In this document: piece after piece, positions 28,269 to 29,097 of the stretch | Layout: each line of letters starts with the position of its first letter | Position numbering within the stretch: position 1 is the stretch's first letter | Assembly: GCA_963754655.1 (NCBI GenBank) | Contig: CAVWGN010000001.1 | Span: 1,120,001-1,184,000 of the forward strand | Length of the DNA stretch: 64,000 bases | Source of the DNA: an uncultured Chlamydiae bacterium | GTDB taxonomy: Bacteria > Chlamydiota > Chlamydiia > Chlamydiales > Parachlamydiaceae | Reading direction: 5' to 3' | The notes under the pieces: generated by a model | The model's input: only the letters and a program-made list of their open reading frames with translations | Databases searched by the model: none | Told to the model about the DNA's origin: nothing | Program-made: the position numbers and the translations under genes

Positions 28269-28901
28269 TTAAAAGCCAAAGCGCTCTTTGCGTACCTGCA
28301 TGAGAAGGATGCCTAAGCGATTTAATCCCTTGCCATCACTTCCATATCCCCAATAAGCATCGAACGGGCTAGCCTCAATTAAATAGCAGGTTCCCGTTTT
28401 GTGCAGCACATTGCTTAAATGTGCATCTTGAAATTTACATCTTAGAATCTCTAACATGATATCTTCTTTGATATCATGCCAATCGGGTCTGCTTAAGTAT
28501 TGATTTTGTTGAGCAATTTGAAAAGCTTCTCGTGAAGTGGGTGTATTCATAATTTGCTGGCGTACATTTTGAGCGTCCTTAGAAGCCCAATTAAATTTTT
28601 CTGCTTGAAAAGCATGTTCTGAAGTTCTCCAGTTAAGGCCTAAATATTGAACACCATGTAACCCATCTTTGCGCCAATTCTCATAAAAATTAGTTAATTC
28701 GTAATAGTGTTCCCCTTTATTATAAAAATAAATGATAGCGTGCTTTTGAATGTTTTCTGGTTCAACCGCAAAAGAATGCATTCTTTTGCTTAAGGCAGGG
28801 CCCCCCGACCGTATATCAATCGCTGCTCGTCGTTCAACATTTGCATTAACTTGAGCAAAAGCAGTGATTGCAAACAACACAACTAAATAAAAATGTTTCA
28901 T
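28269..28901 (-). CDS. NADAR/YbiA family protein with chimeric Ppx-derived signal peptide
   Basis: LTNFY, TSEHAFQAEKF, WHDIKEDIM..RCKF, LIEASPFDAYWG, NRLGILLMQVR; first 34 aa nearly copy the Ppx/GppA protein N-terminus. Confidence 0.88.
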   Translation of the reverse strand: MKHFYLVVLFAITAFAQVNANVERRAAIDIRSGGPALSKRMHSFAVEPENIQKHAIIYFYNKGEHYYELTNFYENWRKDGLHGVQYLGLNWRTSEHAFQAEKFNWASKDAQNVRQQIMNTPTSREAFQIAQQNQYLSRPDWHDIKEDIMLEILRCKFQDAHLSNVLHKTGTCYLIEASPFDAYWGYGSDGKGLNRLGILLMQVRKERFGF

Positions 28902-29097
28902 ATAAAACCTGTTATTGTATTATAATAAATAATAAATAATGACATGCTTTTTAATTAAAGTAAACAGTTTTAATTATATTAAATTGTTTAATAATAAGGC
29001 TTGTTTTGCCTTAAGCTGTTTTTTTACTAAAAATATTTGACACTTGCAGCCCTTCAGGCTGCATGACACAACTCACTCATATATCCAGGACGTTGCT

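Follow-up and report, generated by a model that had tools for sequence, protein, structure and literature searches.

A NADAR gene bearing a ppx-derived start in a variable island of a Parachlamydiaceae genome

In the window, i.e. the whole stretch of 64,000 nucleotides analysed here, the region between a TPR gene and typA (24825-36220) differs from one relative to another: the gap between the two genes measures 0.6 kb in G001, 1.4 kb in G014, 1.7 kb in G003, 3.8 kb in G021 and 18 kb, with other content, in a fifth relative (G002), and 11.4 kb here. We therefore consider this region as a variable island and an insertion hot spot. On the minus strand it carries an open reading frame of 210 aa (28269..28901) that encodes, in this order, MKHFYLVVLFAITAFAQVNANVERRAAIDIRSGG, a proline, ALSKRMHSFAVEPENIQKH and a NADAR domain. 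On the same strand, at higher coordinates, lie a 2H phosphoesterase gene of the 2H-SAK type (35423..36022), an intact Ppx/GppA-family gene of 334 aa (34245..35249) and, behind it, a NADAR stub (33982..34229) and a 3′ remnant of the D-aminoacyl-tRNA deacylase gene dtd (33719..33823), with a pair of fused IS607 ends (33821..33981) between these last two. The island also holds a module (29880-33823) composed of a Na+/alanine-family symporter gene, an unknown ORF, a DAP-epimerase-like gene and dtd. Runs X2, X4 and X7 contain this symporter-dtd module too, as do other genomes of the family. Its upstream region (~30180-30430) is conserved in relatives, has no Rfam match and may be a regulatory RNA leader; over 27000-37000, Rfam gave no match at gathering level.

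The chimeric frame is assembled, on the minus strand throughout, from the following pieces. Codons 1-20 (28842..28901) would specify a Sec signal peptide copied from ppx, whose homologs share the same layout, with a basic start (K2), a hydrophobic core of mean hydropathy 2.5 over 12 residues (2.6 in Ppx) and V18-N19-A20 ahead of the likely cleavage site. Signal and membrane calls, here and below, follow a hydrophobicity rule and not SignalP. Codons 21-34 (28800..28841) are a leftover of the mature Ppx start. The replacement of AIDIGSGG by AIDIRSGG that had been noticed there is borne out by alignment with ppx proteins (DIGSG to DIRSG): the Gly is kept in 14 of the 14 listed ppx proteins covering that stretch, and G31R is the sole unique change in the borrowed part, the other signal-peptide changes mostly matching states present in other ppx. 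The Ppx fragment that holds G31R is now useless. The fusion junction (28797..28805) falls in a GGNGG stretch common to both parents (GGT GGG in ppx, GGA GGT in the NADAR stub) and contains one extra codon, Pro35. It is followed by the linker (28740..28797), which BLASTN and the alignment with the stub and a homolog indicate to be native to the ancestral NADAR gene, and by the YbiA-type NADAR domain (28284..28730), defined by profile, fold and residues.

Upstream of the start codon, the segment 28902..29037 is a duplicate of the ppx upstream region, as aligned with the ppx copy, and includes an RBS-like AGGT and a promoter-like TTTACT-17 nt-CATTAT (28964-28936). On this left copy the duplicated segment is cut off by a nested palindromic repeat element (29020..29470) with 167-nt arms, present at 76 merged genome loci. 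Within the palindromic repeats of 29020-29700, the outer end is found at 74 loci, the inner part at 91 and the right part at 39. Another palindrome, at 35333-35413, has at its centre the end sequence of the outer element and possibly represents a site that is empty or has collapsed.

When the complete genome (3.16 Mb) was searched by BLASTN, 28801-29037 matched 35149-35383 (238 nt, 89.1%, E 2e-82) and 28740-28797 matched 33980-34037 (58 nt, 93.1%, E 1e-17), with no third copy of either borrowed segment. The ppx locus is the one other place where both pieces are present, and their order there is unchanged. The original prediction, that the region upstream of ppx had been duplicated together with the first 34 codons of the gene and joined in frame to a linker also coded behind ppx, is thus confirmed, the frame being open and the copy reaching ~29037 and not 29023; the stub reads ALSKRIH, with Ile in place of Met. 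The repeat offsets of 6348 and 5240 imply a net loss of 1108 bp at the chimera junction. The ppx upstream copies are identical at 119 of 132 positions, and the two ppx 5′ copies are mutually closest among the 11 compared, sharing 91 of 99 coding positions when the others share 86 at most.

These differences bear on whether the fusion is an assembly artefact, or a native N-terminus that merely resembles ppx, which we regard as extremely improbable. Among the pieces listed from four public runs none bridges the junction, as an artefact would predict, but a mis-join would not create copies that differ at 8/99, 13/132 and 4/54 positions. Run X1, which may be the source sample, gave short pieces identical to the sequence analysed here, one stretch of 151 nt falling in the NADAR domain. 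No RNA run turned up among the sequencing runs listed. As for a native N-terminus, the segment is an unmistakable ppx start that no homolog has. Indeed, the ppx motif occurs in one of the 173 NADAR proteins screened, the chimera itself, so that orthologs natively endowed with this N-terminus did not come to light, and no second NADAR with a ppx start was found among 28 near-length matches, 2 longer matches and the best 150 representatives. The chimera forms a singleton cluster at 90% among ~15 billion proteins, and a degenerate linker pattern retrieved nothing in viral contigs.

The donor of the borrowed segment, identified by profile, starts with a signal-peptide-like sequence, as does the 2H phosphoesterase, which is the usual upstream partner of ppx in the loci of relatives. 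The ppx gene is closest to genes of other genera (84-91% protein identity), genomes of the same genus having only ~40% paralogues, and it is likely to be a mobile gene for an exported phosphatase. A parallel swap is found in G064 (L108:8354-9394, G064:C66), where the first ~16 codons of 2H-SAK are fused to ppx and the 2H body is deleted. As this fusion arose by a comparable deletion, leader swapping recurs in the 2H-ppx-NADAR module. In two other loci, L106 and L107, only a 5′ stub of the 2H gene is left near ppx.

The NADAR stub begins with an ATG located 15 nt behind the ppx stop. Its reading frame changes twice within the first 20 codons; a hydrophobic helix and the linker come next, and the IS end then cuts the gene. 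It was proposed earlier that the original NADAR copy had been truncated by a MITE: the copy is cut, and it can be read as the remains of the ancestral gene, but the MITE has to be abandoned. In the 33821..33981 piece, 139 nt of an IS607 right end meet, head-to-head, 22 nt of another right end in inverted orientation. The 12 other genome matches to 33821-33959 all run on past the 139 nt into a 1.83-kb element (11 full, one partial) that codes for an IS607 serine transposase (NF033518, 140 bits against 110) and TnpB, and there is no other copy of a short element. In 11/11 full copies, GG is found at both ends. These GG ends and the serine transposase and TnpB of the parent element agree with the IS607 family as presented in PMC6188088, where its members lack terminal inverted repeats and target duplications; what the window has left of the element is a fused pair of right ends, and this pair looks like a MITE flanked by inverted repeats. 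The 11 full copies in the genome (on C1, e.g. 945053-946212 in L137) are 98-99.5% identical, and five have a broken tnpA or tnpB frame.

On the other side, the dtd remnant retains 33 codons and is cut at the left IS607 end, whereas in G081 dtd is intact and the IS site empty; a contig of run X2 departs from the window at the dtd/IS site with similar sequence. The simplest reading would be that IS607 inserted both into dtd and, in the opposite orientation, into the NADAR copy, and that the DNA between the two insertions was then deleted. Since the IS copies are ~99% alike and the duplicated segments 89-93%, this loss is probably later than the duplication.

The stub aligns to the full-length NADAR homolog P0002 through both leader and linker (43% over 61 aa), which supports the view that it is what remains of the ancestral NADAR gene, one that would have carried a membrane-anchor leader. 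In a domain-only tree of 20 rows, the chimera groups with the proteins with a transmembrane leader P0002-P0004 (97/92), and the AU test rejects (p=0.0036) a tree of the same rows that forces it together with the four signal-peptide homologs. Because of this grouping, of the AU rejection and of the single occurrence of the ppx motif among the NADAR proteins screened, the direction of change is clear: the membrane leader came first and the ppx signal later, independently of the signal peptides of relatives. The proposal that the chimera derives from a duplicated ppx-NADAR unit that lost the ppx body is thereby supported by the stub-P0002 alignment and the tree test. The intact ppx-NADAR pair expected in relatives was found in none of the 14 related ppx loci, some of whose contigs end near ppx, and we therefore infer the ancestral unit, which was not seen. 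Scans of metagenomes and genomes gave 36 and 2 NADAR loci, respectively, which at 26-53% identity are too distant to represent the ancestral gene.

It is also conceivable that a partial tandem duplication ended inside NADAR, the stub having never been complete and the IS elements marking a later deletion only. No loss of a second domain is then needed, the frameshifts of the stub fit a long decay, and the IS-linked deletion would have removed any trace of where the copy ended. We nonetheless judge this highly unlikely, because homology stops exactly at the IS607 end with its GG core. In addition, the linker copies differ by three synonymous changes and one non-synonymous change (P=0.022 under neutrality, from four changes only), an excess that hints weakly that both copies were long translated during their separation. 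The borrowed 33 codons, with six non-synonymous and three synonymous differences, are indistinguishable from neutral (P=0.38).

A different question is whether the fusion, whatever its origin, is anything more than neutral debris of the island, which happens to be in frame, is silent or expressed at a low level, and has yet to decay. Fragments abound in the island (dtd remnant, IS ends, NADAR stub), a deletion preserves the frame one time in three, the chimera forms a cluster of its own, and close NADAR relatives are absent from most family genomes (matches at E<=1e-10 in 9 of 73). Against this, the copies are 7-11% apart and the chimera has acquired neither stop nor frameshift when its sister copy has two frame changes, and both the catalytic residues and a promoter-like motif are kept. 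We thus hold debris to be an unlikely explanation. The promoter-like motif lies 35 nt upstream of the chimera and is also found in four of nine homologous upstream regions, with a pattern written after the alignment had been seen; a sigma-70 scan gave no excess of sites over chance (23 against 20.1 +/- 4.9). Since ppx usually follows the 2H gene, its promoter may lie outside the copied 136 nt.

Residues 58-206 of the chimera match Pfam PF08719 (106 bits against a cut-off of 35.1), and the protein matches TIGR02464 (96.1 against a curated cut-off of 73.7); its best NCBIfam match, above cut-off, is the riboflavin-intermediate N-glycosidase model. The best Foldseek matches of its AlphaFold model are YbiA 2B3W and 8BAU (E 3e-9 and 35% identity with YbiA), and residues 31-50, in the linker region, are predicted to be disordered. 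When PDB 8BAU is used as a bridge to the positions given in PMC11543638, whose numbering is offset by two residues, E95, K102, W141, E176, D181 and W184 correspond to E43, K50, W89, E125, D130 and W133 of the P. nicotianae enzyme. In a 12-row alignment, E95, K102, W141, E176 and W184 are invariant and D181 is present in 11 of the 12 rows, and the chimera has two private changes, its homologs having 0-5. K75 and R79, which in P. nicotianae shield the pyrophosphate of ADP-ribose, are replaced by F127 and Q131 in the chimera and most of its clade, and the substrate may differ as a consequence.

The last-strand residue is Glu in YbiA, Asp in BC4488 and His in the phage type; it is Glu176 in the chimera, and not a BC4488-type Asp. 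Profile, fold and residues place the chimera in the YbiA subfamily rather than among the DarT1-type antitoxins. It resembles E. coli YbiA (PF08719, TIGR02464, 2B3W) in fold, in E176 and in the other catalytic residues, but it has an export-type N-terminus, lacks the Arg of the GR motif (Q131) and stands alone in a mobile island with no dinG or rib context. With the DarT1-NADAR and YarT-YbiA toxin-antitoxin pairs described in PMC11543638 and PMC11125620 it shares the NADAR fold and the E/K catalytic pair; unlike them, it has no co-oriented adjoining transferase, the next gene being convergent, and an exported enzyme could not protect the cell's own DNA. No DarT-type Pfam match was found in its neighbours, and a genome search with PF14487 gave 0 matches, as it also did in 14 controls. 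As reported in PMC11125620, ADP-ribose is removed from guanine in vitro by every NADAR subtype that was assayed there, among them YbiA. NADARs are also described as removing guanine ADP-ribose from RNA (PMC11833690) and, for some, as acting on cytidine ADP-ribose (PMC12945103), viral ones are treated in PMC9503650, and the physiological targets of stand-alone NADARs are given as unknown in PMC11543638. Our literature search on NADAR brought up nothing on exported or chlamydial ones, although supplements may list such architectures.

The original prediction called an N-terminal export or anchor signal unusual for a family known as cytoplasmic. In this lineage it is not, nor is the signal a gain by a cytoplasmic enzyme: the ancestor would already have had a membrane-anchor leader and, by the hydrophobicity rule, six of the 11 closest homologs have a membrane leader, four their own signal-peptide-like start and one neither. 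An export-type start thus appears to be normal in this NADAR lineage (10/11), the fusion having swapped one tag for another, and the predicted export signals of close relatives make it likely that the family works outside the cytoplasm. More widely, NADAR matches were found in 53 of 250 genomes of the order, and the 173 NADAR proteins screened comprise 24 signal-like and seven membrane-like ones by the same rule. Across 31 loci with the best NADAR matches, the domain is preceded by 32 residues or more in 29 of 32 ORFs, and seven ORFs are signal-like (two of them from the chimera's genome) and two membrane-like. The second NADAR of the genome (G000:C2:21380-22117; L138:6380-7117) has a signal-peptide-like start and a Lys/Glu-rich stretch, and its type is also present in G002, G011, G065, G084 and G087. 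Contig C2, considered as a possible plasmid, carries type III and suf genes and is not one. A sister NADAR clade (P0013, P0015, P0016, P0046, P0048, P0050 and L047) bears, in place of an export tag, an N-terminal CxxxGC...C..xHG motif.

The ancestral leader is not confined to NADAR. It is a module of ~55 aa (MNI.F...LFKE.I...LT.QQKKI..IA..AF..LAACY) that no Pfam family covers and that is found on 18 other ORFs of the genome (L119-L136), with one further weak match and none in reversed controls. Fourteen of these 18 ORFs have Pfam matches, to LRR, F-box, MORN, TPR, WD40-like or M54. Such cargo is typical of the effector families of Parachlamydiaceae, of which tested members have type III signals (PMC4209131), and by analogy the ancestral leader could be a type III signal. 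Like the NEX/PEX families of PMC4209131 it heads LRR, F-box and TPR proteins, and it is by these cargo domains that it is set beside them.

Altogether, the explanation that we favour, and hold to be probable, is that a NADAR gene received a ppx-derived start through a duplication and a 1.1-kb deletion, and that its product is a predicted Sec-exported guanine N-glycosidase replacing a membrane-anchored one. A mobile 2H-ppx-NADAR unit would have entered the island between the TPR gene and typA, its NADAR bearing the leader common to many effector-like proteins, and its ppx-NADAR part would have been duplicated to form a direct repeat. An in-frame deletion at the GGNGG microhomology would then have stripped one copy of the body of ppx and of the earlier NADAR leader; the other NADAR copy would have decayed, until a recent deletion between two inverted IS607 insertions took its domain and most of dtd. 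For this origin by duplication and deletion we have good confidence. The product would then reach the periplasm after cleavage behind residue 20 and, given that a type II secretion GspF-family gene is present in the genome, could be carried further, into the inclusion, by type II secretion. Its role there would be the hydrolysis of N-ribosyl bonds, the most likely substrate being guanine-linked ADP-ribose, either in nucleic acids or in related small molecules. That the chimera is an expressed, exported and active enzyme that matters to the cell is plausible, and we advance it with some reserve. The genome also has a RibD-family gene; the clean-up of riboflavin intermediates is a cytoplasmic job that fits an exported protein poorly.

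With the same origin, the protein could instead be a scavenger of the periplasm or inclusion that frees ribose or bases from imported nucleosides beside the exported Ppx and 2H proteins, with no role against ADP-ribosylation. The export-type starts of all three genes of the 2H-ppx-NADAR unit, the loss of the K75 and R79 equivalents and the riboflavin-intermediate N-glycosidase model as best NCBIfam match all go in this direction. Conversely, the activity on guanine ADP-ribose of every NADAR subtype tested in PMC11125620 and the presence of the ancestral leader on LRR, F-box, MORN, TPR and WD40-like proteins, which points to the host side, make such a scavenger rather unlikely.

The type of event that we propose has precedents. 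In the terminal reassortment of type III effectors that Stavrinides reportedly described in 2006, a promoter region and an N-terminal export signal are fused to another coding sequence. Gain of a signal peptide by insertion of a whole segment is described in PMC5952966. Likewise, the promoter region and export signal of one gene are found here on another, but the donor is the adjoining gene of a duplicated unit, the locus still contains what is left of both parents, and the effector-type membrane leader has given way to a predicted Sec signal. The chimera is therefore a well-preserved case of a known mechanism, and the exported NADAR lineage is the better lead.

By keeping donor, ancestor stub and product side by side, the locus would offer a clean example of how chlamydiae reshuffle export tags; as a single, strain-specific fusion, it carries modest weight. 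As the source names attached to related proteins and contigs are Parachlamydia, Candidatus Protochlamydia and Parachlamydiaceae, we consider the host to be an environmental chlamydia; members of the family live in protists. In a lineage where 10 of the 11 closest homologs have an export-type start and where the tag has been exchanged and acquired anew, the substrate may well lie outside the cytoplasm of the bacterium. More speculatively, protist-dwelling bacteria might keep an undescribed class of exported NADARs that strip guanine ADP-ribose outside their own cytoplasm and counter the nucleic-acid ADP-ribosylation of the host or of co-infecting viruses; their delivery tag would be interchangeable, and the switch from an effector-type membrane anchor to Sec at the chimera locus would lead, by gene capture, to the form that sister lineages reached independently. 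If it is indeed host-directed, the exported NADAR lineage would be of greater interest than the fusion itself.
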